From: Candidatus Nanoarchaeia archaeon
Lineage (GTDB): Archaea > Nanobdellota > Nanobdellia > Woesearchaeales > JANQNE01
DNA: 64,000 bases
Reading direction: 5' to 3'
Assembly (NCBI GenBank): GCA_028279725.1
Contig: JANQNE010000011.1
Location: 25,872 to 89,871 of the forward strand
Both the position numbers and the translations under genes were made by a program. The notes below the pieces were generated by a model. That model was not told the DNA's origin. It worked only from the letters and a program-made list of their open reading frames with translations, and did no database searches. This document shows, piece by piece, positions 7,748 to 59,936 of this stretch. Numbering within the stretch: position 1 is the first letter of the stretch; each line of letters begins with the position of its first letter.

Positions 7748-8314
7748 TTAAATCTTTTTGAGGCTTTTTAAAACCTCGGAAGGAGATTTTTCCTCGAATT
7801 CTTTTGAATATTCTTTATATTCATCTGTCTCTTTTAGGAATTGGTTTATGAGATGGAGTGCCTGTGCACTTGTATAGTTAAGACAGTTTAGGATGTGTTT
7901 CATGCAGTTCTTTTCTGTGAATTTGCAGTATTTATCTTCTGGCTCTATGAAGATCTTCAGTTCTCCGTCAATCCTTCTGAAACCAATAGGAAAGATCTTG
8001 CATATCAGTGGTCTGACTGGATAGACAATGCATTTTTTGTCTTCTAAGAAGATGCATTCTTTGTTTTCTTTGCTTTTTAGCTGGAGGACTTTTCCATTGT
8101 CACAGTATTCAAAATAAGAATGGTCGCGGTCTTCCATAACTTCTTTCTGCTCTTCTGGATCCTGGCATATCGGGCCATAGAAACAGAATTCTTCTATCTT
8201 TTTTCCAGTATGCTTTGATATCCTGTCTGCATCTCTTAGTGTAAGAAATGTCCCGTAATCTCCAATACAGCAATGTTCTTTGCATGTCTCACAAGGATGC
8301 TTATTCTGGCTCAA
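7748..8314 (-). CDS. YkgJ/UPF0153-type cysteine-cluster (Fe-S or Zn) protein
   Basis: CETCKEHCC (CxxCxxxCC) plus CIFLEDKKCIVYPVRPLICKIFP, the signature of the CxxCxxCC family. Overlaps the upstream gene by 14 nt. Confidence 0.7.
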   Translation of the reverse strand: MSQNKHPCETCKEHCCIGDYGTFLTLRDADRISKHTGKKIEEFCFYGPICQDPEEQKEVMEDRDHSYFEYCDNGKVLQLKSKENKECIFLEDKKCIVYPVRPLICKIFPIGFRRIDGELKIFIEPEDKYCKFTEKNCMKHILNCLNYTSAQALHLINQFLKETDEYKEYSKEFEEKSPSEVLKSLKKI

Positions 8315-9194
8315 AGTTGATCCACTCCCATTGTTTTGTCTCTTCTAAATTCCAAAGTTTCTTCCAGCCTGAATCACCCGACATAAAATCAATCTTTTTT
8401 GCTTTTAATTTTATTGCATTCTTTATATGTTCTGCTATAAGAAGCTTTCCTAAGTTCTTGATATCTGTGTTTGTTCCTCCGTCAAGGACATAGTAGACGT
8501 TATTGTAGAATATGGCTATTTCAGCAGCTTCTGTCTTGTTGCTGATCTTTATCGATAACATGTGAAGCATATCTTTTTCTTTTGCTGTTTCAACAAGTTT
8601 TTTCATGCTTTCTTCAAATCCATCCTGAAGATAGTTTGAATCTTCCCTAAATCTTTGTTTGTTAAGCTCTACAAGTGTCTTAAAGTCGTCTATGTTGTTC
8701 CATACTGTGCTGTAGTTCAGCTCTTCAAGATGCCTTAGGTCATATTTTATGTTTTTTCTGTGTTTTTTGCTGAAAGATGCAAAATAAGAGTCTATATCTG
8801 GAAAGTCCTCTATATTTAGTGAGAAGGATACATCGCATTCTTTTGGATCAGGAAAATATTCTTTCTCAGAATCATCTATGTATTCTATATTCATGTCTTC
8901 TGGGAATGAGTTAAGGAAATCTTTGATATGTTCTTTGTTTTTTATGAAGAATCTCCTTCTTTCAGGATAGTTTCCACCAAAGAATGCATGGAAATCATTA
9001 TCTCCTTCGTACTGTAATGGGAGCAGACCTATCTCTTTTCCTTCCTGGTAACCTACTACGAAAAAGAACTGATTAATCTTTGGATTGAAGAAGCAATGGT
9101 TGAACTCCCAAAGATCCCATAGTATCTCTTTTGGGCTGTATTTATCCCAAAGCTTCTTACAGTCTTCAAGTTTTGTGAAGGATTTAAATTCCAT
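8301..9194 (-). CDS. GNAT-fold acyl/aminoacyl-transferase, FemAB/CelD-like (Acetyltransf_6-like)
   Basis: C-terminal AEIAIFYNNVYYVLDGGTN...GKLLIAEHIKNAIKLKAKKIDFMSGDSGWKKLW resembles the CelD/BioF2-like GNAT pattern (xDFxxGxxxYKxxW). Overlaps its neighbours at both ends. Confidence 0.55.
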   Translation of the reverse strand: MEFKSFTKLEDCKKLWDKYSPKEILWDLWEFNHCFFNPKINQFFFVVGYQEGKEIGLLPLQYEGDNDFHAFFGGNYPERRRFFIKNKEHIKDFLNSFPEDMNIEYIDDSEKEYFPDPKECDVSFSLNIEDFPDIDSYFASFSKKHRKNIKYDLRHLEELNYSTVWNNIDDFKTLVELNKQRFREDSNYLQDGFEESMKKLVETAKEKDMLHMLSIKISNKTEAAEIAIFYNNVYYVLDGGTNTDIKNLGKLLIAEHIKNAIKLKAKKIDFMSGDSGWKKLWNLEETKQWEWINFEPE

Positions 9195-10107
9195 CCTTGT
9201 TTTTCCTCATTATCGAGAAAGTATATGTGTTGTATGTGCTTACTGGTTTAAATTTGTTCTTAAATTCAAGCAGGTCATCATCTGAACCGCCGAAATTGGC
9301 TTTATCGAAGCCCATCTTCTTTATCTCTATGAGGTCATATAGGTTTGTTATCTCTCCGAGTCCTTCAAATTTGTAGTTAAGCACACCTATGCCTGAATAA
9401 TATGTATTTGTGTTTGGAACTCTCCATCCTGCTGTTATCGAGCATGGAATTCCATCAACTATCAGTGTTTTTGCCATGTCACAGCCTGCGAAATCTGAAT
9501 CAACCATCCTAAAATAGCATTCTTTATAGGCAAAATCTTCTGCTCCTCTTTTATCTATCCAGTCTGTGATGATTTTCTTTAGTTCTTCTTTTGGAAGATC
9601 CAATGAATCTATTAGTTCAACTTTATGTTCTTCAAGGAATCTGTTCTTTATATTTCTTATCTTCTTCCATTTCTTTCCTTCAAGCTTATCTCCATCCCAT
9701 GTTTTCATATCATACATCGGCCATTCAAGCCTAAAGTTAAGCTGTCCTGATCTGAAGTCTGTGTTTTCAAGTTTTTCTTTCAGTTCTTTCCTGAATTTCT
9801 TGTCAACTTCTATCTGAAGCCTGTTAGCTTCGTCTTTGTTGAAAACATGATCTACAAACTTCATGAATGTTTCAAATTTCTCTTCTTTTGGAGCAAGGAC
9901 TTCAGATATCATATACCAAAGCTTGCCTGTCTTTGATTTTTGTGCAAGAACACCTTTGCTGTTATCAAAGCCTACAAATATAGGCATCTTTGCGCTTGTT
10001 GTCTGGTTCATATAGTGATGATAGTTATGTTCAGCATCATGGCCATGTATTTCAACAGCTTTTATTGCTTTTTCTTCAAATTCTTTCTTATCTGTCAATA
10101 CTTCCAA
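9184..10107 (-). CDS. standalone DUF2156 protein (MprF C-terminal aminoacyl-transferase-like), paralog 2
   Basis: GKKWKKIRNIKNRF, ITAGWRVPNTNTYYSGIG, GLGE and FGGSDDDLLEFKNKFKP match the LPG-synthase C-terminal pattern (xxFKxKFxP). No membrane domain. Confidence 0.55.
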   Translation of the reverse strand: MEVLTDKKEFEEKAIKAVEIHGHDAEHNYHHYMNQTTSAKMPIFVGFDNSKGVLAQKSKTGKLWYMISEVLAPKEEKFETFMKFVDHVFNKDEANRLQIEVDKKFRKELKEKLENTDFRSGQLNFRLEWPMYDMKTWDGDKLEGKKWKKIRNIKNRFLEEHKVELIDSLDLPKEELKKIITDWIDKRGAEDFAYKECYFRMVDSDFAGCDMAKTLIVDGIPCSITAGWRVPNTNTYYSGIGVLNYKFEGLGEITNLYDLIEIKKMGFDKANFGGSDDDLLEFKNKFKPVSTYNTYTFSIMRKNKDGI

Positions 10108-10119
10108 ACAAAAACACCC

Positions 10120-11034
10120 CTATTTCTTTGAGATTTTGAAAAAATAATACTTTTCCATACTATGTGGATTAAATTTCAGCTTGAAATTTAATAAGTTTTT
10201 CTTTTCAGAGCCTCCAAAATCGACAAAATCATATTTTTTTTCTTTTAACTGCTTTAGATCATCCACGTAAGCAACTTCTCCAAGTCCTTTGTGTTTGTAA
10301 TTGTGGATTCCTATGGATGAATAGTATGTGTTTGTATTGGGAATTCTCCATCCTGCTGTTATTGCACATGGTTCATCATTAACATAGATTATTCTTGTCA
10401 TATCACATCCTTTGAAGTCGTTCTCTACAAAGTTGAGGAATGTAGGGGCCCATGCTTTTGCTACAGTGCTTTTTCTTGTCTTTTCCCAGTCTTCGATTAC
10501 TTTTTTTATCAGTTCTTTGTCTTCTTTTTTGTATTCTTTTATCTCTATTCTGTTTTCATTGAAGAATGTGTTTTTGATGTTTCTTATCTTCTTCCAGTCT
10601 TTTCCTGGCAAAGAAGAGTCAAAATCATTCATATTGAATACTGGAGAGTCAAAGATCCTTGAAGGTTTATGGATGTTGTACTTTTCCTGGCTGATCTTGT
10701 TAAGAAATTTTCTTCTGAACTCTTTTTCTAATGTTAGGAATATCTTGTCTGATGATCTTAATGAATGTTCTATGAAGTTCAGCAGAAGGTCTAATTGTTT
10801 TTCTTTTGGAGCTAAAACATCTGAGATGATCTCATATTCATTATCATCTTCATAGTAAAGGGCGAAGACTCCATATTTTTCTTCAAAGATGAAGAAAGTC
10901 GGTATAACTCCTTCTTCTTTCATGTTATAATAATACCAGAAATTGTGTTCAGACATATTACCATAGCTGGAGATAAGCTGTTCAATAAGTTCCTTGCTTT
11001 CTAATATATTATTTATGACCCTCACGTTGATCAA
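10120..11034 (-). CDS. standalone DUF2156 protein (MprF C-terminal aminoacyl-transferase-like), paralog 1
   Basis: Shares VLAPKE, DWKKIRNIKN, GCDM, ITAGWRIPNTNTYYSSIG, GLGE and FGGS...FKLKFNP with the adjacent paralog. Confidence 0.55.
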   Translation of the reverse strand: MINVRVINNILESKELIEQLISSYGNMSEHNFWYYYNMKEEGVIPTFFIFEEKYGVFALYYEDDNEYEIISDVLAPKEKQLDLLLNFIEHSLRSSDKIFLTLEKEFRRKFLNKISQEKYNIHKPSRIFDSPVFNMNDFDSSLPGKDWKKIRNIKNTFFNENRIEIKEYKKEDKELIKKVIEDWEKTRKSTVAKAWAPTFLNFVENDFKGCDMTRIIYVNDEPCAITAGWRIPNTNTYYSSIGIHNYKHKGLGEVAYVDDLKQLKEKKYDFVDFGGSEKKNLLNFKLKFNPHSMEKYYFFKISKK

Positions 11035-11070
11035 GAAGAAGTTGTTATATTTAAATTATTAGATTCTCAA

Positions 11071-11171: not shown

Positions 11172-12215
11172 TTAAGAATAACTGGTTTCTTCAGCTTTCT
11201 GCTGAGCTTCTATCAAAGGACCAAGTTTTTCTCTTAGGTTATGTCTTTCTATTGCACAATCAAGGATCTTCTGTATCATCTCATGATATTCTAATCCTAT
11301 TGACTGGGCTGCCATCGGTGTTGAGCAATCACAAGAGATTCCTGGATTTGGATTCATCTCTAAAACATAAGGGATGTTGTTTTCGCTTAATCTTATGTCA
11401 ACTCTTCCGTAATCCCTTACATCTAATAACCTGTATAGTTCTGCTGCAACTCTTTTGATCTTTGATTCTACATATTTAGGGATATCATCTGGCTGCCTGT
11501 AGTCTGCATTCTTGTATAATTCACTTTTTTCATCCCATTTAGCTTCATAAGAGAAGATTCTCATAGGGTCTGGAGTTAAGTTCTTGAAAGAAACTTCCAT
11601 AATTGGCAAGCTTATGAGGTTGCTTCCATTTCCAAGGACTCCAACATCAAGATCTCTTCCTCTGATATATTCTTCAACCAATGCAGGCTGATTGTATACT
11701 CTGTTTATGAATCCAACTCTTGACTGCAGCTCTTTTTCATTTCTTACTATTGCATCTGAGCTGATACCTATGCTGTTGTCCATCCTTGATGGCTTTACTA
11801 TCAAAGGAAAATGCAGATCAGGATCAAGTTTCTTGTTTCTTGAGTAAAATATCTGCCATTTTGGTGTTGGAATGCCATGATGCATCATTATCTCTTTTAC
11901 CCTAGCCTTATTCATACAAAGAGCCAGGCTTAAAGGACCAGAACCAGTATATGGTATATCTAACAGTTCAAGCATAGCTGCAACATGAGGCTCATGGAAC
12001 GAGTTTCCGTTGAATCTTTCGCAAACATTGAAAGCTATGTCAACATTTGCTCTTGACAGCTTACCAAATGTCTGTTCATTGACATCAAAGAACTCAACAT
12101 CATGGTTATTCTTCTTCAATGCTTCATGAACAAGGTTTCCAACCTTGAAAAGATCATTCTCAACTTCCTTATTTGAATATTCTTTAAAGATGTTAGAAAG
12201 AACAGCTACTTTCAT
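11172..12215 (-). CDS. D-alanine--D-alanine ligase family ATP-grasp enzyme
   Basis: N-terminal Rossmann-like MKVAVLSN, HEPHVAAMLELLDIPYTGSGPLSLALCMNKARVKEIM, FPLIVKPSRMDNSIGIS, EEYIRGRDLDVGVLGN, GRVDIRL...YVLEMNPNPG. Ddl-type ATP-grasp order. Confidence 0.7.
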   Translation of the reverse strand: MKVAVLSNIFKEYSNKEVENDLFKVGNLVHEALKKNNHDVEFFDVNEQTFGKLSRANVDIAFNVCERFNGNSFHEPHVAAMLELLDIPYTGSGPLSLALCMNKARVKEIMMHHGIPTPKWQIFYSRNKKLDPDLHFPLIVKPSRMDNSIGISSDAIVRNEKELQSRVGFINRVYNQPALVEEYIRGRDLDVGVLGNGSNLISLPIMEVSFKNLTPDPMRIFSYEAKWDEKSELYKNADYRQPDDIPKYVESKIKRVAAELYRLLDVRDYGRVDIRLSENNIPYVLEMNPNPGISCDCSTPMAAQSIGLEYHEMIQKILDCAIERHNLREKLGPLIEAQQKAEETSYS

Positions 12216-12866: not shown

Positions 12867-13211
12867 ATGGCTGCAAAACAAAAAATAATAGGGCTTACTG
12901 AAAAAGTACTGGTCTATGGCCAGAATAAAAAGAAAAATGTTGTCGCTAGGATAGATACTGGAGCGACAAAGTCTTCTATCGATGTAAAATTAGCTGCTGA
13001 GCTGCAGTTAGGTCCTATATACAGGACTAAATTAGTCAAGTCTACCCATGGTAATACATTAAGGCCTGTTGTTGAGATGAACATAAGACTTTCTGGGGTG
13101 GAATTAAGGTCAGATTTTACGATAGCTGACAGAACTGATATGAAATATCAGATATTGGTCGGCCAGAATATATTGAAAGAGGGAAATTTTTTGGTTAATC
13201 CTAAAAAATGA
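12867..13211 (+). CDS. retropepsin-like aspartic protease domain protein (RimK-associated, DUF785/Zn_protease-like)
   Basis: ARIDTGATKSSID (D-T-G-A active-site signature). 114 aa. Overlaps the rimK-like start by 4 nt. Confidence 0.6.
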   Translation: MAAKQKIIGLTEKVLVYGQNKKKNVVARIDTGATKSSIDVKLAAELQLGPIYRTKLVKSTHGNTLRPVVEMNIRLSGVELRSDFTIADRTDMKYQILVGQNILKEGNFLVNPKK

Positions 13212-14311
13212 AAGCTGCATTAATCAGTCTAGGAAGCAAGAGCTCTCAATTTACAGCTGAAGCTATGAAGAATTACTTTGATGAAGTTGATGATCTTGAT
13301 ATAAAGAATATAGAAGTTAATTTTGGTGTTAAGGAGCTTGAACTATTATATAATGGAGAGCCTTTGAAGGATTATGACTGTGTCTATGCAAAAGGATCTT
13401 TCAGATATTCACCTTTGCTTGCGTCAATAACATCTGTATTGGCTAAGAAAGATATATATCTGCCGATAAGCGCAGATTCTTTTACTATAAGCCATGATAA
13501 GCTGCTTACACAGATAGAGCTTCAGAAGAACAAGATACCTATGCCTAAAACATATCTTTCTTCTACACCTGAAGCTGCAAGGGAGCTGTTAGAGAAGGTC
13601 AATTATCCTATAATCATGAAGTTTCCGCAGGGAACACAAGGGAAAGGGGTGATGGTCGCTGATTCTTTTGCTTCAGCATCTTCAATGCTTGATGCTTTGT
13701 CAGCTTTGAGACAGCCTTTTTTGATACAGGAATATATAGAGACAGGCGGAATCGATATAAGAGCGATAGTTGTGGGAAAGAAAGTTGTTGCAGCGATGAA
13801 AAGAAAGGCAGAAGGGGAAGAGAAGAGAGCAAATATACATGCAGGCGGTAAAGCAGAGCCTTGCCAGCTGGATGCTCACACTAAAAAGATCGCTATAGAT
13901 ACTGCAAAGGCAGTTGGTGCAGAGATATGCGGTGTTGATATATTAGAAAGTGCTAAGGGTCCTGTTGTCATTGAGGTGAATATATCTCCTGGGCTGCAGG
14001 GAATAATGGCTGCAACTAAGGTTAATGTTGCTGACAAGATAGCAAAATATCTTTATGAAGTTTCCAAGAAGAGATCTGAAGGGGATAAAAAAGAGTCAGC
14101 ATCAAAGATACTGAGCGATCTTGGTGTTGAAGAGGCAACAAAGACATCAAAAGATATAATGACGACCCTTGATTTCAGAGGAAAGAGGGTGTTGCTGCCT
14201 GAAGTTGTAACCAATCTTACTAAGTTTGATGATACGCAGGATGTTGTGATAAGTGCTGACAAAGGAAAGCTTGAGATAAAGAAGCTTATCATCGGCGCTA
14301 AGAAGAAATAA
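13208..14311 (+). CDS. rimK: RimK-family alpha-L-glutamate ligase (ATP-grasp) with a C-terminal extension of roughly 80 aa
   Basis: YPIIMKFPQGTQGKGVMV, FLIQEYIETGGIDIRAIVVG, RANIHAGG and CGVDILES..GPVVIEVNISPG follow the RimK/LysX pattern. Confidence 0.75.
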   Translation: MKAALISLGSKSSQFTAEAMKNYFDEVDDLDIKNIEVNFGVKELELLYNGEPLKDYDCVYAKGSFRYSPLLASITSVLAKKDIYLPISADSFTISHDKLLTQIELQKNKIPMPKTYLSSTPEAARELLEKVNYPIIMKFPQGTQGKGVMVADSFASASSMLDALSALRQPFLIQEYIETGGIDIRAIVVGKKVVAAMKRKAEGEEKRANIHAGGKAEPCQLDAHTKKIAIDTAKAVGAEICGVDILESAKGPVVIEVNISPGLQGIMAATKVNVADKIAKYLYEVSKKRSEGDKKESASKILSDLGVEEATKTSKDIMTTLDFRGKRVLLPEVVTNLTKFDDTQDVVISADKGKLEIKKLIIGAKKK

Positions 14312-14342
14312 CTTTTTAAATAGAGAGTTCTTGTTTTGTCCT

Positions 14343-16424
14343 ATGTGTGGGATTATAGGGATATTTAACCATAAGGATGCTAAGAAGCTAGCTAAGAAGG
14401 GGCTGTCTAAGATATTATACAGGGGAAAGGACAGTAATGGCCTCTTTAGTTCTGAGAATTGCTGTATCGGACATTGCCTGCATTCTGTAGTTAATTTTGT
14501 TGAACAGCCTTTCAAAGGAAAAGGTGTGCTGATCGTAAATTGCGAGCTGTATAATTGGGAAGAGCTTAACGATAAATATAAGTTTAAGGCAAGGAATGAT
14601 TCTGAATTACTTTTTATGTTGTTGGAGAAGAAAGGAGTTTCAAAGATCAAAGAGATATTAGATGAGCTGGATGGTGTTTATTCTTTCTGCTATTGGATTG
14701 ATGATAAAGTTTATGTTGCGAGAGATATAATCGGTGTAAAGCCATTATGGTTCTCTAAGTATGAGCATCTTGGTTTTGCTTCTGAGAAAAAGGCATTGAA
14801 AGAGATAGGAATGTTTGATGCTGAGGAACTAAATCCCAGGAAGATATTAGTTTATGATGTGAAGAAGAATAAGGTTGAATTTATCGAGAGGGATTTTTTA
14901 AAGATAACACCTGAATTGAAGTGTAAATATGAAAAGATAAAGAAAGAGCTGACTGGGCTTGTTGTTAATTCTATCTCTAAAAGGATACCTGATCAGAAGT
15001 TTGGGATATTGTTTTCCGGAGGGATTGACTCTGGTCTGATCGCACATGCATGTAAAGAATTAGGTGTTGATTTTACATGCTATACTGCTGCTTTGAAAGA
15101 AAAAGGGATGGGAGAAGCAGAAGATATGGTCTATGCTAAGAAAGTTGCTGATAAATTAGGATTCAGGCTAAAGACAAAGACAATTTCTCTTAAAGAAACT
15201 GAAAAGTATCTGAAAAAAGTAGTTCCTTTGATAGAAGATTCCAATGTTGTTAAAGTTGGAGTGGGATTGACTTTCTATGTTGCATGTGAGATGGCTAAGA
15301 AAGATGGGATCAAAGTTATATTTTCCGGACTTGGATCTGAGGAGCTGTTTGCCGGCTATGAAAGGCATAGGAAAAGTGATCTGATAAACAAAGAATGCCT
15401 TTCTGGAGTCATTAAGATATATGAAAGGGATCTTTATAGGGATGATGTTATTGCGATGGCAAACAATCTTGAGCTTAGGCTTCCTTTTCTGGATAAGAAG
15501 CTTACTAGTTATGCACTGAAGATTCCTGCTAAATACAAGATAAAAGATGGGTTGACTAAAGTTGTTCTCCGTGATGTTGCTGTTGGTCTTGGTTATGATA
15601 AAGAATTTGCATCTAGAAGGAAGAAAGCTGCGCAGTATGGAAGCAAGTTTGACAGAGCGATAGCTAAACTTGCTAAGAGAAAAGGATTTAACCTTAAATC
15701 AGAATATTTGAGGACCTTTTATCCGGAAGTTAATCTTAAGCTAGGTGTGTTGTTCAGTTCTGGGAAAGACAGCTGCTATGCGATGCATGTTATGAAAAGA
15801 CAGAATTATGAGATAAGCTGCCTGATAACATTAAAGAGCAAAAATAAAGATTCTTATATGTTTCATACGCCTGCTATCGAGCTTGCTGAAGTGCAGGCGA
15901 AGGCGATGGAATTACCTATAATAGAACAGGAGACTGCAGGTGTTAAGGAAAAAGAGCTTGCTGATCTGAAGAAGGCATTAGCTGCTGCAAAGAAAGAGCA
16001 TAAGATAGAAGGTGTTGTGACCGGAGCATTATTTTCTAAATATCAGCGTGAAAGGATAGAGAAGGTTGCTGATAGTCTTGGGTTAAAGATATTTTCTCCT
16101 TTGTGGCATATGGATCAGGAGACTGAGCTTAAAAGTTTGGTGAGAGAAGGATTTGATGTTATTATCAGCTCTATAGCTGGTTATGGCATGGAAACAAAAG
16201 ATATAGGAAAGAGGATTGATGATAAGATGATCTCGAAATTGAGAAGGTTAAAAGATAAGATCGGGTTTAATGTAGCTGGAGAAGGCGGAGAGTTTGAGAG
16301 CTTTGTCCTTGATGGGCCTATGTTTAAGAAGAGATTGGAGATTGTTGATAGCCAGAGAGCTATAGAGAATGAATGTACTGGCAGGATGCTGATCAAGAAG
16401 ATTAAATTAGTCGACAAGAAATAG
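14343..16424 (+). CDS. fusion protein: glutamine-hydrolysing asparagine synthase-like (N) + diphthine-ammonia ligase Dph6/MJ0570-like PP-loop domain (C)
   Basis: Start set at MCGIIG (Ntn Cys2), with TATA ctttttaaata about 25 nt upstream. AsnB PP-loop ILFSGGIDSG. C-terminal LGVLFSSGKDSCYAM and VAGEGGEFESFVLDGPMF are Dph6 signatures. Confidence 0.75.
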   Translation: MCGIIGIFNHKDAKKLAKKGLSKILYRGKDSNGLFSSENCCIGHCLHSVVNFVEQPFKGKGVLIVNCELYNWEELNDKYKFKARNDSELLFMLLEKKGVSKIKEILDELDGVYSFCYWIDDKVYVARDIIGVKPLWFSKYEHLGFASEKKALKEIGMFDAEELNPRKILVYDVKKNKVEFIERDFLKITPELKCKYEKIKKELTGLVVNSISKRIPDQKFGILFSGGIDSGLIAHACKELGVDFTCYTAALKEKGMGEAEDMVYAKKVADKLGFRLKTKTISLKETEKYLKKVVPLIEDSNVVKVGVGLTFYVACEMAKKDGIKVIFSGLGSEELFAGYERHRKSDLINKECLSGVIKIYERDLYRDDVIAMANNLELRLPFLDKKLTSYALKIPAKYKIKDGLTKVVLRDVAVGLGYDKEFASRRKKAAQYGSKFDRAIAKLAKRKGFNLKSEYLRTFYPEVNLKLGVLFSSGKDSCYAMHVMKRQNYEISCLITLKSKNKDSYMFHTPAIELAEVQAKAMELPIIEQETAGVKEKELADLKKALAAAKKEHKIEGVVTGALFSKYQRERIEKVADSLGLKIFSPLWHMDQETELKSLVREGFDVIISSIAGYGMETKDIGKRIDDKMISKLRRLKDKIGFNVAGEGGEFESFVLDGPMFKKRLEIVDSQRAIENECTGRMLIKKIKLVDKK

Positions 16425-16539: not shown

Positions 16540-18120
16540 ATGGCAAAAGAGATAATCAATGATCCTTCTAGGACTTTTATGGAGTATAGATTCCTGCCAG
16601 GAGAGACTCCTCGGGATTGTACACCTGATAAGATCTCTTTAAGAACTCCACTGACAAAGTTTACTAAAGAGAGCGGTATGGAGAGTGCTAAAATCATACT
16701 TAATCTTCCTTTTATGTCTGCTGCTATGCAGTCTGTGACAGGGTCTGGACTTGCGATCGCTTTGGCCCAGAACGGTGGCATTGGTGTGCATTATTGCTCA
16801 CAGCCTGTTGAAGATGAAGCAAGAAAGGTTGCTGAAGTTAAGGGTGCTAAGGCTGGATTTGTAAAGCCAAAGACATTGTCTCCTAATGATACTGTTGAAG
16901 ATGCTTTTGAAAAAGCTGTCAAGGAAGGGTATTCGATATATCCTGTAATAGATGAGAATGGAGTATTGTTGGGTTCTGTAAATGTTAATTATCTTAAGAA
17001 CAGGATGGGAGATGAAAAGATATCTGATGTTATGAGGAAATTTATCCCGAAGGGCCTTGATGAGATAACATCTGAGATGAAAGCTAATAATGCGACAGAT
17101 GAAGAGATAATAAAGACAATAAGAGAATATATCACATTTGCTAAAGTGGGTATTGATTTAGAGGAAGCAAACAGGATCGTGGAGGAGAATAACTCTAAGT
17201 TTATCGCTATTGTCGGAGAGGATAATAAATTACATTCTTTAGTATTCAGAAAAGATATCTATAAGCATATAAGCCATCCTAAGGAGCTTATTGATGCTAA
17301 TAAGAGATATATCTGTGCAGCTGCTATCAATACACATGATTACAAAGAAAGAGTTCCTGCTTTAGTGAAAGCTGGAGTTGATATGATAGTTGTAGATTCG
17401 TCAGACGGCTATACTGAGTGGCAGAAAGAGGCTGTCCAGTTCTGCAAAGGAGAGTATCCGACAATACCTGTTATGGGAGGCAATATAATAACTGCTGAAG
17501 GATTCAGATATCTTGCAGATGCAGGTGTTGATGCTGTAAAGGTTGGAATGGGTGGCGGTTCTATATGTATAACTCAAGAACAAAAGGGGACTGGAAGAGG
17601 ACAGGCTGATGTTGTTGAAGAAGTCTGTGCTGAGAGAGATAAATATTATGAAGAAACAGGTGTTTATATTCCAATTATTTCTGATGGAGGCCATAGTTTT
17701 GCGAAAGATATGACTATGGCTTTGGCTTTTGGTGCTGATGCAATAATGTGCGGAAGGATGTTTGTTGGATGTGAGGAAAGCAATGCTCCGTTCCATCCAG
17801 AAGACAGGAAGTTCAAGCAGTATTGGGGAGAAGGACATTCAAGAGCTAAGGCCTGGAGACAGCAAAGATATGGCCAGGTAAGTTTTGATGAAGGGGTTGA
17901 TGGATTTGTTCCTTTTGTCGGAAAACTTAAGGAAAATGTTCTCGATGATATCACAAAGAAGATGATATCAACGATGGTTACGTGCGGATGCAAGAATCTG
18001 GATGAGCTTCATAAGAAAGCAAGAGTTAAGCTTATCTCTGAGCTTTCTATGAGAGAAGGCAAGCCGCATGATATCATATTACCAGAGAACATGACATATA
18101 AAGCCAGAAGGTGGGGTTGA
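16540..18120 (+). CDS. guaB: IMP dehydrogenase with CBS pair
   Basis: PFMSAAMQSVTG, VVDSSDGY, GMGGGSICITQEQKGTGRGQ (catalytic Cys loop), ISDGG. SD GAGGGGGT upstream. Confidence 0.9.
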   Translation: MAKEIINDPSRTFMEYRFLPGETPRDCTPDKISLRTPLTKFTKESGMESAKIILNLPFMSAAMQSVTGSGLAIALAQNGGIGVHYCSQPVEDEARKVAEVKGAKAGFVKPKTLSPNDTVEDAFEKAVKEGYSIYPVIDENGVLLGSVNVNYLKNRMGDEKISDVMRKFIPKGLDEITSEMKANNATDEEIIKTIREYITFAKVGIDLEEANRIVEENNSKFIAIVGEDNKLHSLVFRKDIYKHISHPKELIDANKRYICAAAINTHDYKERVPALVKAGVDMIVVDSSDGYTEWQKEAVQFCKGEYPTIPVMGGNIITAEGFRYLADAGVDAVKVGMGGGSICITQEQKGTGRGQADVVEEVCAERDKYYEETGVYIPIISDGGHSFAKDMTMALAFGADAIMCGRMFVGCEESNAPFHPEDRKFKQYWGEGHSRAKAWRQQRYGQVSFDEGVDGFVPFVGKLKENVLDDITKKMISTMVTCGCKNLDELHKKARVKLISELSMREGKPHDIILPENMTYKARRWG

Positions 18121-18124
18121 TCTT

Positions 18125-19855
18125 ATGATAACCAAAGAAGCACACCAACATATGAAGGATATCGGTGTTATTGAAGGATTAAATCGTGATATTTCTCAAG
18201 AATATGAGGTAACTTCTTTTGATGAGGCCTTGCTTCCTCTGATAGACAAGAATGATGTTTTGGTTGTAGCAGGCGGTTTTTTTGGTGATGAAGGGAAGGG
18301 AAAGATAACAGATGCTGTTGCTAATCACTCAAAGATCAAACTGATAATGAGATCAAATTCAGGAGAAAATGCAGGCCATACAGTCTATCATGATGGAGTA
18401 AAATATGTTTTCCATGTAGTTCCTTCAGGAATATTAGTTCCAGGCAAGTTAAATCTTATCGGTTCTGAGTGTGTTGTGGATCCTGTAAATCTTATGGGGG
18501 AGCTTTCCCAGCTTACTGAAAGAAATATAGATTACTCTGAAAAACTTTTTATAGCAAATCCACATATTGTCGCTCCATATCATAAGCTGATGGATCTTAT
18601 CCAGACTGCTTCAAATTCCTCCACATTAAGAGGCATATCTCCTATACATGCTTCAAAGGCGAAGAAAAGAGGGTTGAGGCTTGATGACATATACATGCCG
18701 GAAGAACATCAGAAGAAGATCATTGAGAAAGATATGGGAGATTATATCGGATTGATGGAAGTATTGGGAAAAAATCAAGAACAACTGCTGAAGTTTTGTG
18801 AAGAAGTGAATTCTGATGATAATGTTGTCATTCCGGAGCATGTAGTTGGTTTTCTTAAAGCAGATGATAAAGTAAGATATATTGTTGATCTTTTCAGAAA
18901 GACTGTTGTAGAAAATAAGCTCTTTCCTGAAAGGACGAAGAATATGGATCTAGTTGACGATACTTTGGAGAAGGGAGATAAGATGCTTGTTGAAGCAGCA
19001 CAAAGTTTTTTTCTTTCAAATAAGATAAAGACTCATTTCAGATCTGCTACTTCAGCTGATACAAGCGCAAGCGGGACTATCTCTGCAGCTAATTATAATA
19101 TTGCCAAATACAATACAGCAGTCATAAATGTAATCAAATTTGTATCTTCAAGAGTTGGCAGAGGAGAGAATCCTGTCGGTTTTGTGCCGCAGACCTTCTT
19201 TTCAGATCAGGGGATAACCACGTTAAATGAACTGAAAGGTGTGTGTGAAGATTTTGATGAGATACAAAAGCAGTTTATGGATTCTGTTGGAGAGAACGGA
19301 ATCTTGGATCCTACAACCTACAAAGATAAGGATGGAAAAGAGTATCCTATAGTTGTTGCTATGGCTATCGCTTCTTCAAAACACTATGGGGAAAGAGGAG
19401 CTACTACTAAAAAACCAAGGATTACTGGATTTATAGATTGTGTTGCTCATCACCTTGTCAATAAGAAGCAAGGTCCATATCTTTCTATATCTGCTATGGA
19501 TAGAGGAGATGACCTTGATAAAGTGGGATTGGTTATCGCTTATGTTATCTATGTTCCAGAAGGGAAGAGTAATCCTGAGTCTGAAGGAAAAGAATATAAG
19601 ACAGGAGATTTGATAAAAACAGGAGATCCTATGCCTAATGAACAGGTCTTGAAGTATGCTATCCCTATAATAAAAGTTATGAATGGGTGGAAGGACAGCC
19701 CTATTGCTGTTGATAAAAGAAGTGTGGATGACCCATTACCTAAATCAGTCCAGGATTATATTGCTGCATTAGAGCATTTTACTGGAGCTGAAGTTATATC
19801 TATTGGGAATGGAGCTGACACAAAGAACCTGATATACTTGAAAAAGAAAGCTTAA
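18125..19855 (+). CDS. purA: adenylosuccinate synthetase family protein, long and divergent (576 aa)
   Basis: GDEGKGKITD, GENAGHT, GATTKKPRITGFID and MNGWKD align to AdSS motifs. The GTYPxVTSS and TTGRxRR blocks are substituted and large insertions are present. Confidence 0.65.
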   Translation: MITKEAHQHMKDIGVIEGLNRDISQEYEVTSFDEALLPLIDKNDVLVVAGGFFGDEGKGKITDAVANHSKIKLIMRSNSGENAGHTVYHDGVKYVFHVVPSGILVPGKLNLIGSECVVDPVNLMGELSQLTERNIDYSEKLFIANPHIVAPYHKLMDLIQTASNSSTLRGISPIHASKAKKRGLRLDDIYMPEEHQKKIIEKDMGDYIGLMEVLGKNQEQLLKFCEEVNSDDNVVIPEHVVGFLKADDKVRYIVDLFRKTVVENKLFPERTKNMDLVDDTLEKGDKMLVEAAQSFFLSNKIKTHFRSATSADTSASGTISAANYNIAKYNTAVINVIKFVSSRVGRGENPVGFVPQTFFSDQGITTLNELKGVCEDFDEIQKQFMDSVGENGILDPTTYKDKDGKEYPIVVAMAIASSKHYGERGATTKKPRITGFIDCVAHHLVNKKQGPYLSISAMDRGDDLDKVGLVIAYVIYVPEGKSNPESEGKEYKTGDLIKTGDPMPNEQVLKYAIPIIKVMNGWKDSPIAVDKRSVDDPLPKSVQDYIAALEHFTGAEVISIGNGADTKNLIYLKKKA

Positions 19856-19865
19856 TGGTGAAAAG

Positions 19866-21701
19866 ATGAGTGCTGAAAAGATCCTTGTTTTAGATTTTGG
19901 AGGACAGTACACTCAGCTTATTGCCAAGATTGTGAGGCAGTGCAATGTTTTTTCTGAGATAAAGCCTCATGATTATCATTCTGAAGATATTGTAGGAGAT
20001 AATCCTAAAGGAATTATCTTATCTGGTGGGCCTGACAGTGTTTATGGTGATGGAGCTCCACAAATTGATAGGGAAATTCTTGAGTTAGGTATTCCTGTGC
20101 TAGGAATATGCTATGGCATGCAATTGATCAACTATACTCTGGGTGGTGGGATGATAAGAGGTGGAGATTCTATCAAAGAGTATGGGGAAAGTAGTGTGAT
20201 GGTGGAGAATGAGCATGATCTTTATTCTGGACTTAAAGAAAAGATAACTACCTGGATGAGCCATGGAGACAGTGTTGACGGAGGAGATCTTGCAAAAGGT
20301 TTTAGAGTTATAGGAAGGACTGACAATCATGTAGCTTCTATAGCGAATGATGATAAGAAGATTTATGGTGTACAGTTCCATCCTGAAGTTACTCATACTG
20401 TAAATGGAAAGGATATTGTCTCTAATTTTGTTCATAATATCTGCGGCTGTGGTGATGACTGGAATATGGGGAACTATATCGAGCAGTGCAAGAAATATGT
20501 CCAGAAAACAGTGGGGAAGAATGATGTAATCAATTTTGTAAGTGGTGGAGTTGATTCTACTTTTGTTGCTGCTGTTCTTTCTAAGACTGAGAACATCGGG
20601 AATGTGTATAATGTTTATATCGGAGCTTTGATGAGAAAGAATGAGAATAAAGAAGTTGTTAAAAGTATGGAGAAGGCTGGTGTGAAGAATCTTATTTTTA
20701 AAGAGTGTGAAGACAGGTTTATAGAAGCTGTCAGTAAGATGAGCGATCCTGAAGAGAAAAGGAAAGCTATAGGTGATCTTTTTGGGAAGATAATGCAGGA
20801 AGTGTGTGAAGAACTGAAATTAGATGCTGATAAGACTTTCTTAGGACAGGGGACATTGTATACAGATCAGATAGAAAGTGGCAAAGGTGTTGGTGATAAG
20901 GCTGATAATATCAAGTCTCATCATAATGTGGGATGTCCTTTTATAGAAGATATGAAGAAAAAGGGAAGGCTAGTTGAGCCGAATAATATGATATTCAAGG
21001 ATGAAGTTAGGAAGGCAGCAAAAGAGATAGGATTGCCTGAGTCGATATATGCAAGACAGCCATTTCCTGGTCCTGGAATAGGAATAAGGATTGTTGATGG
21101 TGTTGAGAATGTTGATCTGAGTGAAGTTAATGATAAAGTTAATGAAATTGCTAAGCAAGAGGGGTTGATCGGAGGAGTTGTTCCTGTGAAGACTGTTGGT
21201 GTACAGGGAGATGGAAGAACCTATACTTATCTTGCTGTCTTGAGGGGGGAGAGAAACTGGGATAAGATAAGGAAAGCTGCTAAAAGAATACCTCAGGAAG
21301 TAAGAGAAGTTAACAGGATTGTCTATGACCTGGGTAAGGAAGGAGATATTGATTTCAAAAGTACAGTTTCTACTAAAGTTAGCAGAGAGACTGTCGATCT
21401 GCTTAAGGATGTTGATCTTGAAGGAAGAAAGATAATTGATGAAAATGGTTTTAAGGATATAAGCCAGACAATATTTGTGTTGTTTGGATCTGACATGAAT
21501 AGTAAAGGGAAAAGAAGTGTTGCGTTGAGGGCTGTATCAACAGATGATTTTATGACAGTCAGACCAGTAAAAGTGGGTGATGGGTTCTTATCATGGGAAT
21601 GTCTTCAGCAGATCCATGATGTTCTATTGGATAAGTATAATGTCGGAGCGTTTGTCTATGATGTTACAGACAAGCCTCCTGCAACAACATGCTGGGAGTG
21701 A
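19866..21701 (+). CDS. guaA: GMP synthase (glutamine-hydrolysing), single fused polypeptide, 611 aa
   Basis: GATase LGICYGMQ and VQFHPEV. PP-loop FVSGGVDST. C-terminal PPATTCWE, matching the canonical PPATIEWE end. Confidence 0.9.
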   Translation: MSAEKILVLDFGGQYTQLIAKIVRQCNVFSEIKPHDYHSEDIVGDNPKGIILSGGPDSVYGDGAPQIDREILELGIPVLGICYGMQLINYTLGGGMIRGGDSIKEYGESSVMVENEHDLYSGLKEKITTWMSHGDSVDGGDLAKGFRVIGRTDNHVASIANDDKKIYGVQFHPEVTHTVNGKDIVSNFVHNICGCGDDWNMGNYIEQCKKYVQKTVGKNDVINFVSGGVDSTFVAAVLSKTENIGNVYNVYIGALMRKNENKEVVKSMEKAGVKNLIFKECEDRFIEAVSKMSDPEEKRKAIGDLFGKIMQEVCEELKLDADKTFLGQGTLYTDQIESGKGVGDKADNIKSHHNVGCPFIEDMKKKGRLVEPNNMIFKDEVRKAAKEIGLPESIYARQPFPGPGIGIRIVDGVENVDLSEVNDKVNEIAKQEGLIGGVVPVKTVGVQGDGRTYTYLAVLRGERNWDKIRKAAKRIPQEVREVNRIVYDLGKEGDIDFKSTVSTKVSRETVDLLKDVDLEGRKIIDENGFKDISQTIFVLFGSDMNSKGKRSVALRAVSTDDFMTVRPVKVGDGFLSWECLQQIHDVLLDKYNVGAFVYDVTDKPPATTCWE

Positions 21702-21703
21702 AA

Positions 21704-22183
21704 ATGGGAAAGAAAAAACTAGAATCTATGGTTAAGAGTAGTGTTAAGTATCTGATAGAAGGGGCAGTCTTGGCTGCGAAAGAAAGATATGACGGTGCGT
21801 TAGAACATAGGGCAGCTGAATATGCTGTTGAGAGAGAAGGAAAGCTGACAAAGGACCAATATGAATTCTTATTTCATTGCATACATTGGTTTCTATATTC
21901 AAGCCCTGGAGAATATGGACAAAAGAAGAGGCTTGATCGTACAGATGCAAGGAGAAGTGGTGATAAGCAGTATTGGAAATTGTTGAATCCACGTGAGTTC
22001 TTCAATAATGGCGATGGTCCTAGGAAGGATTTTGATAGGACAATGAACAGATTAGCTGAATGTGCGTATAGGCAGGAGAAAGACTGGTTTGACGGAAGAT
22101 ATGCCAGTTATATGGATAAAGGCGGAGAAATCAACAGAACAGAAAGAGTTAAATTGTTAAAATCACTCGATATCAAAGAGTAG
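21704..22183 (+). CDS. hypothetical protein embedded in the purine cluster
   Basis: Start moved to MGKKKLES, which has SD GGGAGTGA and follows the guaA stop by 2 nt. No recognisable motif. Its 3' end overlaps the convergent purM by 21 nt. Confidence 0.5.
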   Translation: MGKKKLESMVKSSVKYLIEGAVLAAKERYDGALEHRAAEYAVEREGKLTKDQYEFLFHCIHWFLYSSPGEYGQKKRLDRTDARRSGDKQYWKLLNPREFFNNGDGPRKDFDRTMNRLAECAYRQEKDWFDGRYASYMDKGGEINRTERVKLLKSLDIKE

Positions 22184-23281
22184 ATCTTCTTTATCTTTTC
22201 CTTTACTTTTTATTTTTATTTTGTTTTCTTCGATGACTTTGCCTGCAATCTGGGCTTTTATGTTGAACTTTGCTGCTTCCTGGATAACTTTTTCTGGCTC
22301 TGGTGTTATTATTGCTAAGCCTTGGCCCATGTTCCATGTCCTGTATGCTTCTTTGTCTGCTATGTTTCCTAGTTCCTGGCAATATTGCATAGCTTTGCAT
22401 GGTTCGAAAAGATTGTCTAGTTCAGCTCCATAACCTGATGGTTTTAGGACTCTGCCAAGTTTTCCTGGCAATCCGCCTCCTGTGATATGAGAGACACCAT
22501 GGATCTTACAGCATCCTTCTGTCTTGAAACCACCATGCATATGAATAACAGCTTTTGAATATATTGTTGAAGGTATGAGGACTAAATTTCCTAATTTTTC
22601 TCCTTCAAATTCAAAATTGTGCCATTCTGGACCATGTTTTTGTTCAAAAACCTTTCTTGTAAGAGATAATCCGTTTGATCTGAAGCCTTTTTCTTCAAGA
22701 ACAACAACAGAATCTCCTAGCTGAACTTCTTTTCCTGTGAAAAGCTTGTTTTTGTTTGCAAACCATGCTATGCTGGAGCACCAATTGTACTTGAACTTTC
22801 CATAACCACCAACACCATCTCCAAGTTCAGCTAATTCTCCGTTGATTACTGCAACATTTGCTGCATCAGCAGCTTTTACATAGCCTTCTGCAAGTTGTTT
22901 TAGCTGTTCTATGTGTGATTCGTTTTCTTTTCCTAAAGAATTAACGTCAAGAACACTTCCGATAAGGACTGGTTCTGCTCCTCTTACTATTGCATCATCA
23001 CAGACCATTGCAAAAAGATCAAAGGCTATTGTCTTATGGTTGTTCATCCTCTGTGCAATCTCTACTTTTGTTCCGACTCCGTCAAAACCTATGCACATAA
23101 GGCTTCCTTCAGGAAGATTTCCGATGTTAATGGCTCTGACTCCTGAGAAATCATCAAATGGAACGATGATCTCTCCGATATTGCCTTTTCTGTTATCAAA
23201 GGTAAGCTTTGCAGCTTTGTACAATATCTTTGATGCATCATCTCCAAGTTCGATGTTAACTCCTGAGTCTTTATAGTCCAT
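22163..23281 (-). CDS. purM: phosphoribosylformylglycinamidine cyclo-ligase (AIR synthetase)
   Basis: DYKDSGVNIELGD, GFDGVGTKVEIA and HITGGG match the PurM pattern. Confidence 0.9.
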   Translation of the reverse strand: MDYKDSGVNIELGDDASKILYKAAKLTFDNRKGNIGEIIVPFDDFSGVRAINIGNLPEGSLMCIGFDGVGTKVEIAQRMNNHKTIAFDLFAMVCDDAIVRGAEPVLIGSVLDVNSLGKENESHIEQLKQLAEGYVKAADAANVAVINGELAELGDGVGGYGKFKYNWCSSIAWFANKNKLFTGKEVQLGDSVVVLEEKGFRSNGLSLTRKVFEQKHGPEWHNFEFEGEKLGNLVLIPSTIYSKAVIHMHGGFKTEGCCKIHGVSHITGGGLPGKLGRVLKPSGYGAELDNLFEPCKAMQYCQELGNIADKEAYRTWNMGQGLAIITPEPEKVIQEAAKFNIKAQIAGKVIEENKIKIKSKGKDKEDLLFDIE

Positions 23282-23282
23282 A

Positions 23283-24782
23283 TTAACCTCTGTCAGCTTT
23301 CTCCAGCTTTTCTATCTTTTCTTTGTTTTTCTTTTTTATCGCTTTCTGGATCTTCTCATTTGAGAGTCCTAAGATCTGTGCTGCATGTCTTGCTGCATTA
23401 GCAGGTCTTAAGATCAATGAGTTAGAGCTTCCTGGTGGATTCTCTAAGCAAGAAAAGCAATCATCTGCATCAGGAGGACAGCTGATCACTGGGTGAACGC
23501 TGTGGAATGATACAACTCCTGAAAGAGCATCTGTTCCTCCTGCAACAGAGATAAATACAACTGGTTCTTCAGACTGGTTGTATTTGTTTATGATCTCTTC
23601 ACATCTTCTTGGTTGTTTGTGTGCTGAGCAGATTCTTATGACTGATGCCAGTCCGTATTTGTTCAACTCTTCCTGGATCTTTTTCAGATGAGGCATGTCA
23701 CTGTCTGATCCTGCTATGATAACTACTAAGCCACCTTTGATGTATCCTTCTTTTCTTAGCTTTTGGATCATATCTGTGCTTACATCTGACTGAGGGAAAT
23801 TGAACTTATTTCCTGTCAGGCTTTCATATAAACTGATATATCTGTAAGCAACTTCTATTACATCTTTGTCTTCAAGTTCTGGCGGCTTTTCTGTTGATCC
23901 GTAAGCACCATATCCTTTTTCAACAAGAACATCTCTAACGAACTGTTTTGACAGCTCTTTTATCTTTAGCTGTGGTTTTTTCTTAAGAAGTTCTGTTACA
24001 TCTTTGTATCTTCCTGTATCCATCTCTTTCTTTATTCCTGTGTATTTGTTGTATTCTTCTATTGTACAGTATCTTGATGAATCTGGTGTGTTTGCTTCGT
24101 CAATCAGGTTGATCTTTCCTTTTTCGTCGATACCAAACTCATACTTTGTGTCAATGAAGATAAATCCTTTCTGTTCTGCCAGTTTTGATGCACGCTTAAA
24201 TAGTCTTATTGAGATATCTCTGAGCTGTGTTGCCAGTTTTTTTCCAAGCTTATCTGCCATGTATTCAAAGCTTACATTAACATCATGATCTCCATCTTCT
24301 GCTTTTGTAGCTGGAGTAAATAATGGTTCTCTAAGCTTTTGGTATCTTAGCAATGAATCTGAAAGCTTTATTCCGCAGAACTCTCTTTTTCCATCTTCGT
24401 AGTCTGCAGCCATGCTTCCCCAAACATATCCTCTTACAACGAATTCGAATGCAATCTTATTCATCTTTTTCTGGACAATAACATTTCCATGAGGGCTTCT
24501 TATGACAGCGTTTGGAACAATATCTGTTGTGTTGTCAAATGCCCATTGTGCGAAGAGGTTTAATGTTAATCCTTTGAAAGGGATCTGCCTGCTAAGTACA
24601 TGGTCAAAGCAAGATATCCTATCTGATGCCACCATCACTATAGGTTTTCCAACTTTTGGTGATGTAAAATGTACTTCTCTTACTTTTCCTGATTTATGTG
24701 TTCCAAGTTCTGGGATGTATCCTGAGAACAGGGTATTGTCTAAGTTTTCTTTGATTATTTTTTTGTATTTTTGTTCTTCCAT
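23283..24782 (-). CDS. purC-purE: bifunctional SAICAR synthetase (N) + class II-like AIR carboxylase PurE (C), PAICS-like order
   Basis: N: GKVREVH...VASDRISCFD...IPFKG. C: IIAGSDSDMPH, CSAHKQP, VAGGTDALSGVV...HPVISCPP, AAQILGLSN (animal PAICS-like strings). Confidence 0.85.
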   Translation of the reverse strand: MEEQKYKKIIKENLDNTLFSGYIPELGTHKSGKVREVHFTSPKVGKPIVMVASDRISCFDHVLSRQIPFKGLTLNLFAQWAFDNTTDIVPNAVIRSPHGNVIVQKKMNKIAFEFVVRGYVWGSMAADYEDGKREFCGIKLSDSLLRYQKLREPLFTPATKAEDGDHDVNVSFEYMADKLGKKLATQLRDISIRLFKRASKLAEQKGFIFIDTKYEFGIDEKGKINLIDEANTPDSSRYCTIEEYNKYTGIKKEMDTGRYKDVTELLKKKPQLKIKELSKQFVRDVLVEKGYGAYGSTEKPPELEDKDVIEVAYRYISLYESLTGNKFNFPQSDVSTDMIQKLRKEGYIKGGLVVIIAGSDSDMPHLKKIQEELNKYGLASVIRICSAHKQPRRCEEIINKYNQSEEPVVFISVAGGTDALSGVVSFHSVHPVISCPPDADDCFSCLENPPGSSNSLILRPANAARHAAQILGLSNEKIQKAIKKKNKEKIEKLEKADRG

Positions 24783-24806
24783 TTTTTCCTCCCCTATCCC
24801 TCTTTT

Positions 24807-25421
24807 TTATTTTTTGACTATAACTTTTCTTCCTTCAACCTTTATCTTTCCTTCTCCAAAAAGCTGTATAGCTTTAGGGTAAAGCTCTTTTTCTAATGTC
24901 TGGACCTTTTCTTTCAATGAATCTACTGTCTCGTCGTTCTCTATGTCTACTGTTCCCTGCATTATTATAGGTCCTGTGTCCATTCCTTCGTCAACAAAGT
25001 GGATTGTGCATCCGCTGACCTTACATCCATAGTTAAGGATGTCTTCATGTACTGACCTGTCCATTCCTGGGAATGAAGGCAGTAGTGAAGGATGAATGTT
25101 CATTATCCTGTCTTTATATTTGTTTGCAAACCATGGGCTAAAAAGACGCATATAGCCTACAAGGACTAAAAGTTCTACTTCTTCCTGGTCTAAGATCTCT
25201 GCAACTCTTTTGTCGTAGCTTTCTCTTGTGTCTTCATCTTTTTTGTACAATTCTATTCTTGTCTTGAATCCCTGGTTTTGTGCTCTTTCGATAGCATAGC
25301 ATTCTTTGTTTGCTAGGACAATCTTTAATTCTGCATCAAGCTCTTTGTTCTTTATAGCATCCATTATAGCCTGAAGATCTGTTCCGTTTGTTGATGCCAT
25401 TACAGCTATTTTTATCGTCAT
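24807..25421 (-). CDS. purN: phosphoribosylglycinamide formyltransferase (folate-dependent)
   Basis: [53 protein letters not shown]. Confidence 0.9.
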
Positions 25422-27445: not shown

Positions 27446-27446
27446 T

Positions 27447-31404: not shown

Positions 31405-31406
31405 TT

Positions 31407-35178: not shown

Positions 35179-35269
35179 GATCAACCCCCTATAGTTAGCT
35201 GAAAAATGACTCATATATAAATATTATGGCTACCAGCCAGTACTAAAGATATACTCAAGAATATAGTTT

Positions 35270-35704: not shown

Positions 35705-35787
35705 AGAACAAAAGGATTACTAAGTTGTATATAAATATTATTGTTTTTGAGTATTCTAGAATGGTAACGTTACGTTAATCGTAAGAA

Positions 35788-59834: not shown

Positions 59835-59936
59835 GGGCCTATAGTCTAATGGATAGAACAACCGGCTTCGGTAAGTGGGGTCAAAAGCTTCGCTTGTGGG
59901 TACCGGTTAGTGGGGGTTCGAATCCTCCTAGGCCCA
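59835..59936 (+). tRNA. tRNA-Arg (anticodon TCG) with a 30-nt intron at the canonical 37/38 position; no encoded CCA
   Basis: Acceptor GGGCCTA:TAGGCCC (7 bp), anticodon stem ACCGG:CCGGT, loop C-T-TCG-G-[intron 59872-59901]-A, T arm GGGGG-TTCGAAT-CCTCC, discriminator A. The mature length is 72 nt. The D stem has one mismatch. Confidence 0.8.

Follow-up and report, generated by a model that had tools for sequence, protein, structure and literature searches.

Paired free-standing DUF2156-like proteins of Woesearchaeota as candidate aminoacyl-tRNA-dependent transferases in a polyamine-associated gene neighbourhood

Non-ribosomal transfer of amino acids from tRNA is known to modify lipids, cell-wall precursors, protein N-termini, and a few antibiotics. 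A stretch of 64,000 nucleotides (nt) from a woesearchaeal genome (contig JANQNE010000011.1; hereafter the window) contains two adjacent minus-strand genes, A (10120..11034) and B (9184..10107), whose products are free-standing, DUF2156-like tandem-GNAT proteins. Together with their homologues, they most likely constitute a small, distinct subfamily of DUF2156/Fem-type proteins in DPANN archaea, with a spill-over into bacteria of the candidate phyla radiation (CPR). Tentatively, and with somewhat less than even confidence, A and B are proposed to be aminoacyl-tRNA-dependent transferases, which would act sequentially, within an amide-building module, on amines of the polyamine pathway or on conjugates of these. 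The setting of their relatives in polyamine operons suggests a link between tRNA-borne amino acids and polyamines that has not been described.

Read from a TTG codon at position 11034, gene A encodes 304 amino acids (aa); the true start is probably the GTG at 11025 (301 aa), because the annotated homologue P0001 has 301 aa and close homologues begin with MRVI. Gene B, which also starts with TTG, is separated from A by 12 nt on the same strand; its start is preceded by a Shine-Dalgarno-like GGGGTG, and its product of 307 aa is on record as an exact match. The two proteins are paralogous over their full length (37% identity and 59% positives over 301 columns, E 2e-66 by BLASTP; E 2e-109 when the profile of A was compared with that of B) and have the strings WKKIRNIKN, ITAGWR[IV]PNTNTYYS, GLGE, and FGGS in common. 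In neither was a transmembrane segment found (maximal Kyte-Doolittle mean over 19 residues of 0.93 for A and 1.05 for B), and the AlphaFold2 models of both are compact α/β globules. An original prediction, made from the sequence of the window, of a tandem pair of ~305-aa proteins with identical strings in otherwise diverged sequence, and without transmembrane segments, is borne out by these data. A TATA-like element (tttaaatata at about 11046..11055, minus strand) lies ~25 nt upstream of the GTG at 11025, within the 137-nt spacer between A and the preceding gene; A and B may be transcribed from a promoter of their own, into an mRNA with a short leader or none.

At present, members of the A/B family are annotated only as 'hypothetical' or 'DUF2156 domain-containing'. 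The Pfam model PF09924 (DUF2156/LPG_synthase_C) matched A with 40.3 bits (gathering score 27.5) over model positions 59-295 of 298, and a precomputed match to it is present on many B-clade homologues. AlphaFold2 models built on family alignments (predicted local distance difference test scores of 93.7 for A and 94.1 for B) have the domain layout of the PF09924 family, with GNAT I comprising residues ~1-134, a long helix at 145-160, and GNAT II at ~163-304; the best fold matches were 2HQY and the synthase domains of MprF. When A was searched with Foldseek, 2HQY, itself a free-standing DUF2156 protein, came first (E 4e-14, template modelling score 0.75), followed by MprF synthase domains (0.65-0.69), and then by FemX and Sbb17. 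In a ranking of structural matches, 2HQY (23.2) was followed by L-PGS (21.2), the MprF entries (20.4-20.9), FemX (18.7), FemA (18.0), Sbb17 (17.8), Lipid II FemX (17.4), NMT and GlcN N-acetyltransferase (both 14.2), and MshD (11.9). Above the gap in this ranking, all matches were either aminoacyl-tRNA-dependent enzymes or 2HQY; the acyl-CoA-dependent tandem GNATs were all found below it. Neither protein matched the FemAB Pfam model, which does not support FemABX membership, and neither was matched by Acetyltransf_1-type models or had CoA-dependent enzymes as its closest fold neighbours. Judging from the models, A and B appear to belong to the superfamily of tRNA-dependent tandem-GNAT transferases, nearest to DUF2156, and we infer from this placement that they depend on tRNA. 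Their earlier designation as soluble DUF2156 proteins is supported, with PF09924 above its cut-off for A and below it for B, and with folds nearest to 2HQY and MprF.

Across 69 family members from both clades, conservation is 93% or higher for G144, KK.RN..N, GW.IPN..YYS, GE, D.G.S, and FK.KF.P. The string WKKIRNIKN (residues 147-155 in both proteins; 10570..10596 in A and 9643..9669 in B, minus strand) forms the core of the positively charged inter-domain helix 145-160 in the models, and its residues K148, K149, R151, N152, and N155 are invariant family-wide. In DUF2156 enzymes, such a positively charged α(+) helix is needed for the use of aminoacyl-tRNA (PMC8913301). Near the C-terminus of GNAT II, FKLKFNP in A (F284-P290; 10165..10185, minus strand) and FKNKFKP in B (F282-P288; 9244..9264, minus strand) represent the motif FK.KF.P, which is invariant across the 69 members and was aligned by hhalign to K.KLSYHP of c4, a DUF2156 family resembling 2HQY. 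The lysine of the F-K motif is catalytic in FemX (F304/K305) and in DhpH-C (F328/K329; PMC12945691). Going by position and alignment, FK.KF.P looks like the counterpart of this catalytic lysine motif of Fem-type enzymes. In GNAT I, conserved residues include polar or charged and aromatic ones (EHN; W129/P130 in B; D139 in A).

The two paralogues are old. In a neighbour-joining tree, the A clade and the B clade were separate across Woesearchaeota, which rules out a recent local duplication; likewise, a degenerate pseudo-enzyme is ruled out for either paralogue by the retention of every core motif in both clades. Typing of 41 loci with profile hidden Markov models (HMMs) yielded both A and B in 13 loci and c4 together with B in 12; only B was present in 10, and only A in five, the latter mostly at contig ends. 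B is the universally present member in related loci. The duplication can accordingly be regarded as ancient, and B as the constant member. Identity between A and B is lowest in GNAT I (23%), against 45% in GNAT II and 57% in the helix region. As the acceptor is handled by GNAT I and the aminoacyl-tRNA by GNAT II in DUF2156 enzymes (PMC8913301), the predominant divergence of GNAT I fits a specialization of A and B for different acceptors. The separate clades and the concentration of divergence in GNAT I agree with the earlier suggestion of an old duplication followed by specialization.

The family is small: with the B-clade profile, 214 clusters (at 50% identity) were obtained at E ≤1e-3 among 1.84 billion representatives. 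Among the 150 best-scoring representatives listed, nearly all full-length ones comprised ~300 aa, and none was long enough to contain a flippase domain; one protein, P0211 (282 aa), matched the transporter model MFS_1. The only clear domain fusion found was P0098 (488 aa), a B-type protein with a C-terminal Acetyltransf_1 GNAT. The named homologues of A and B are from Woesearchaeota. B-type genes with Ddl-like and arginase-family neighbours were also present in metagenome-assembled genomes of Magasanikbacteria (CPR) and in one labelled Gammaproteobacteria (loci L035-L037); their Ddl-like proteins are, by eye, highly similar to that encoded in the window, a likeness that suggests inter-domain transfer of the module.

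In total, 120 related loci were collected, their open reading frames called, and the neighbouring genes typed by clustering, HMMs, and Pfam; unless stated otherwise, counts refer to the 39 loci that remained once redundancy at 80% identity had been removed and loci with less than 3 kb of flanking sequence set aside. A polyamine gene (for SpeDA, SpeB, PvlArgDC, deoxyhypusine synthase [DHS], or an HSS-like protein) lay no more than 5 kb away in 27 loci. SpeDA (an arginine decarboxylase of the AdoMet_dc family) was encoded in 25, SpeB (an agmatinase of the arginase family) in 22, DHS/SpeY in eight, and PvlArgDC in two. Another amide-forming partner (A, c4, a PF13480 protein, a Ddl-like protein, or a second B) was present in 36 loci, and only three had neither a polyamine gene nor such a partner. 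Recurrent gene orders were (Lit), SpeDA, A, SpeB, B, (PF13480); DHS, SpeDA, SpeB, c4, B; SpeDA, Ddl, B; and Ddl, (CxxCxxCC), B, (Acetyltransf_1), parentheses denoting genes not always present. The spacers are operon-like: -25 or -4 nt from A to SpeB, -4 nt from c4 to B, +3 to +7 nt from Ddl to B, and -11 to +6 nt from B to the PF13480 gene. In the CPR locus L036, PvlArgDC, MetK, an arginase-family gene, the Ddl-like gene, B, SecA, and a saccharopine-dehydrogenase-type enzyme are encoded; as its arginine decarboxylase is not homologous to SpeDA, the theme is kept there with non-homologous enzymes, which argues for a functional link over inherited synteny. Directly downstream of Ddl-B, a canonical Acetyltransf_1 GNAT is encoded in several loci (L083 8900..9382, L087 8911..9381, L095 8894..9361, and L105 8919..9404); taken with the fusion in P0098, its presence hints that the product is N-acetylated.

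The SpeD homologue of Woesearchaeota is a demonstrated L-arginine decarboxylase, clustered with speY and speB (PMC10407285). SpeY and SpeB constitute an agmatine-dependent route to homospermidine, and SpeB enzymes are broadly tolerant and accept N-substituted agmatines (PMC13625781). GNAT or ATP-grasp neighbours are mentioned in neither of these studies. In related polyamine clusters of Woesearchaeota, the genes for SpeB and DHS/SpeY flank one for a SET-domain protein of 160 aa (L107 9804..10289, L040 9803..10285; nine loci).

In the window itself, A and B are the second and third of five minus-strand genes forming a putative operon, whose order (Ddl-like gene, A, B, PF13480 gene, CxxCxxCC gene) is identical in loci L001 and L041. 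The Ddl-like ATP-grasp ligase (11172..12215, minus strand), encoded directly upstream of A, matched PF07478 with 116.8 bits and, among PDB entries, Ddl best (E 4e-28); its orthologues adjoin A or B in 13 of the 39 loci. It scored below every NCBIfam cut-off for Ddl (187 versus 243). In a provisional alignment with E. coli DdlB, the ATP-grasp catalytic residues appear to be kept (K215, R255, E270, and N272), whereas the triad E15/S150/Y216 reads N/N/W, and S281/L282 reads C/S. Because of the score below the cut-off and the apparently altered substrate triad, a bona fide D-Ala-D-Ala ligase is doubtful; genes for murein precursors were not detectable in the window.

Downstream of B, and overlapping its end by 11 nt, lies a gene (8301..9194, minus strand) for a Fem/CelD-like GNAT (Acetyltransf_6; PF13480, 56.9 bits), which follows B in 11 of the 39 loci. 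Its product showed a weak colinear match to B in hhalign (E 0.004, probability 8%), in which KKHRKN was placed against WKKLRNIKN of the basic helix; the protein may, although this is not established, be a third Fem-like transferase. The last gene (7748..8314, minus strand), overlapping the PF13480 gene by 14 nt, encodes a CxxCxxCC protein (PF03692, 25.5 bits), a family whose genes, in 16 of 121 loci, either follow the PF13480 gene or lie between those for Ddl and B. No NCBIfam model matched A, B, the PF13480 protein, or the CxxCxxCC protein. Divergently from the Ddl-like gene, a retropepsin-like PF05618 protein (114 aa) and a RimK-type ATP-grasp ligase (367 aa) are encoded with a 4-nt overlap (12867..14311, plus strand). 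Farther along the plus strand follows a gene (14331..16424) for a protein of 697 aa, in which a glutamine amidotransferase/asparagine-synthase module is joined to a diphthamide-synthase ATP-binding domain resembling Dph6; an orthologue of this gene adjoins the Ddl-A-B operon, again divergently, in L001 and L041.

If A and B are aminoacyl-tRNA-dependent transferases of the polyamine pathway, either protein would bind aminoacyl-tRNA through GNAT II and the basic helix between the two domains, with its invariant residues. Assisted by the likewise invariant lysine of the F-K motif, it would pass the aminoacyl group on to a nucleophile in GNAT I, the domain that has diverged more. Soluble amines of the pathway from arginine via agmatine to putrescine or homospermidine, or conjugates built on them, would serve as acceptors, and A and B would use different ones, one after the other, in a small module for amide formation, which also includes the Ddl-like ligase, the PF13480 protein as the third Fem-like GNAT, and the CxxCxxCC protein. 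Precedents exist for aminoacyl-tRNA-dependent enzymes of GNAT fold with small-molecule amines as acceptors (Orf11/Sbb17, PacB, and DhpH; PMC12945691; PDB 9WQX).

Several observations weigh against this proposal. A tblastn search of the 64-kb window for SpeB, SpeDA, DHS, c4, Lit, and the other neighbour families returned none of them; for this genome, the link to polyamines consequently rests on orthology. Twelve of the 39 loci have no polyamine gene nearby. In nine of the 39, SpeDA is preceded by a gene for a Lit-family (PF07314) integral membrane protein, the sole recurrent membrane component of the neighbourhood (27 of 121 loci; in the marine group, 51-94 nt upstream of SpeDA-A-SpeB-B, as at 6724..7458 in L003/L004). 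As to family membership, PF09924 matched B with 22.6 bits, below the gathering score of 27.5, and comparison of A and B with PDB sequences, by single sequence and by profile HMM, gave nothing significant; the best match was 2HQY (profile E 0.37, on the helix motif), and hhalign of B with the 2HQY-like c4 reached E 2e-4 at 46% probability. The closest characterized structural relatives of A and B act on lipids. To our knowledge, no aminoacylated polyamine has been reported from archaea. In the literature searched, neither a prior link between DUF2156 and polyamines nor a description of aminoacyl-tRNA-dependent enzymes acting on putrescine, homospermidine, or agmatine was found.

Three other explanations have to be considered, of which lipid aminoacylation is the least improbable, followed by modification of peptides or proteins, and then by acyl-CoA-dependent acylation of polyamines. 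Like soluble versions of the MprF synthase domain or ErgS, A and B could aminoacylate lipids without a flippase, for example, lipids that the DPANN cell has scavenged from its host, and the two paralogues would then differ in the lipid or the amino acid used. This is unlikely, as neither a flippase gene nor any other conserved lipid-metabolism gene is found in the neighbourhoods; the conserved partners are, in several gene orders and in two domains of life, polyamine enzymes and soluble amide-forming enzymes, the GNAT I domains have conserved polar or charged and aromatic residues, and no hydrophobic stretch is evident in A or B. The synthase domain of MprF and of aminoacyl-phosphatidylglycerol synthases (PF09924; PDB 4V34-36, 5VRV, 6LV0, 9GOE) is only 12-16% identical to A and B, and the latter, at 304 and 307 aa and with the low hydropathy given above, lack the N-terminal integral-membrane flippase domain that precedes it in MprF. 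The gene context argues against phosphatidylglycerol, the acceptor of MprF, and the acceptor of A and B is probably a different one. That it would hardly be handled as in bacterial MprF had been anticipated in the original prediction, and both the missing flippase domain and the non-lipid gene context are in line with this view.

Less probable still is that A, B, and the PF13480 protein aminoacylate a peptide, a protein, or an envelope precursor in the manner of FemX/FemA/FemB or of L/F-transferase; residues would then be attached one after another to a peptide stem, to the N-terminus of a protein, or to a side chain, and the Ddl-like ligase would supply or extend a dipeptide. The FemX, FemA, and FemB enzymes of Staphylococcus include tandem paralogues, too (femAB), but A and B lack the coiled-coil insertion, are shorter (~300 aa versus ~400 for FemA), and belong to an archaeon. 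Finally, both could be N-acyltransferases of agmatine, putrescine, or homospermidine that use acyl-CoA and not tRNA. The polyamine gene context and the GNAT-superfamily fold would suit such an activity, and in sequence the loop K-x-x-G-L-G-E resembles the CoA-pyrophosphate motif Q/R-x-x-G-x-G/A. Because of the fold ranking, in which acyl-CoA-dependent tandem GNATs stand below the aminoacyl-tRNA enzymes, and because of the motifs, this explanation is the least likely of the three and is considered improbable.

Within the preferred reading of tRNA-dependent aminoacylation of polyamines, the gene order SpeDA, A, SpeB, B permits a more specific, speculative reading, to which we give a low probability: the genes would be colinear with a pathway to N,N'-bis(aminoacyl)putrescine. 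Arginine would be decarboxylated to agmatine, whose only free primary amine would be aminoacylated by A from aminoacyl-tRNA; the SpeB-type ureohydrolase would then remove urea and unmask the second amine for aminoacylation by B. The guanidino group would in this way serve as a built-in protecting group between the two tRNA-dependent steps. Extension or capping of the product would fall to the Ddl-like ligase, the Fem-like PF13480 protein, and a GNAT acetyltransferase. If true, such a pathway would account for the keeping of two acceptor-diverged paralogues, and it would represent the first tRNA-dependent aminoacylation of polyamines, common to DPANN archaea and CPR bacteria.

Apart from the A/B operon, the window encodes a near-complete pathway of de novo purine biosynthesis (22163..37227, minus strand, and 16540..21701, plus strand), comprising PurM-like, a PurC-PurE fusion, PurN, FolD, a split PurH, 5-FTHF cyclo-ligase, PurQ, PurL, PurB, and a PurF-PurD fusion (28735..31404, 889 aa); GuaB, PurA, and GuaA are encoded as well. 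For a DPANN-type genome, this is an unusually rich biosynthetic set, and the fusion of PurF with PurD is uncommon. The lysyl-tRNA synthetase in the window is of class I, which, like the named homologues, fits a DPANN archaeon of the Woesearchaeota type. A tRNA of 102 nt (59835..59936, plus strand), recognized by the Rfam model (51.6 bits) and missed by ARAGORN, probably contains an archaeal intron. At 55918..58325 (plus strand), a gene of the N-formylglutamate-amidohydrolase family overlaps one for a weakly GCS2-like carboxylate-amine ligase; the two may form a further amidoligase module of small size.

Soluble DUF2156 proteins as such are already known. The free-standing 2HQY of Bacteroides thetaiotaomicron, a protein of unknown function, differs from A and B, which share marginal sequence similarity with it and form a small family of their own. 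Fungal ErgS, the ergosteryl-glycine synthase, is a free-standing DUF2156 protein that depends on a separate aminoacyl-tRNA synthetase and cannot do without its α(+) helix; its origin lies in the duplication of another DUF2156 enzyme, followed by a change in specificity (PMC8913301). ErgS resembles A and B in being free-standing and of paralogous origin, but it is eukaryotic and uses a sterol as acceptor, whereas A and B are two paralogues in one operon with other ligases. Other aminoacyl-tRNA-dependent enzymes of GNAT fold (Orf11/Sbb17/Sba18, PacB, DhpH-C, and VlmA) belong to actinobacterial secondary metabolism (PMC12945691; PDB 9WQX); the A/B family, in contrast, occurs in DPANN and CPR organisms with reduced genomes and apparently in core polyamine metabolism. 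What appears to be undescribed is the DPANN/CPR subfamily itself, the conserved pairing of its paralogues, and their tight association with polyamine and amide-forming enzymes. Should A and B indeed act on polyamines, they would add a new class of acceptors to tRNA-dependent transfer and would join the substrates of translation to polyamines in organisms of almost unknown physiology. If scavenged lipids are modified instead, the finding would bear on how membrane-dependent symbionts remodel the membranes of their hosts.

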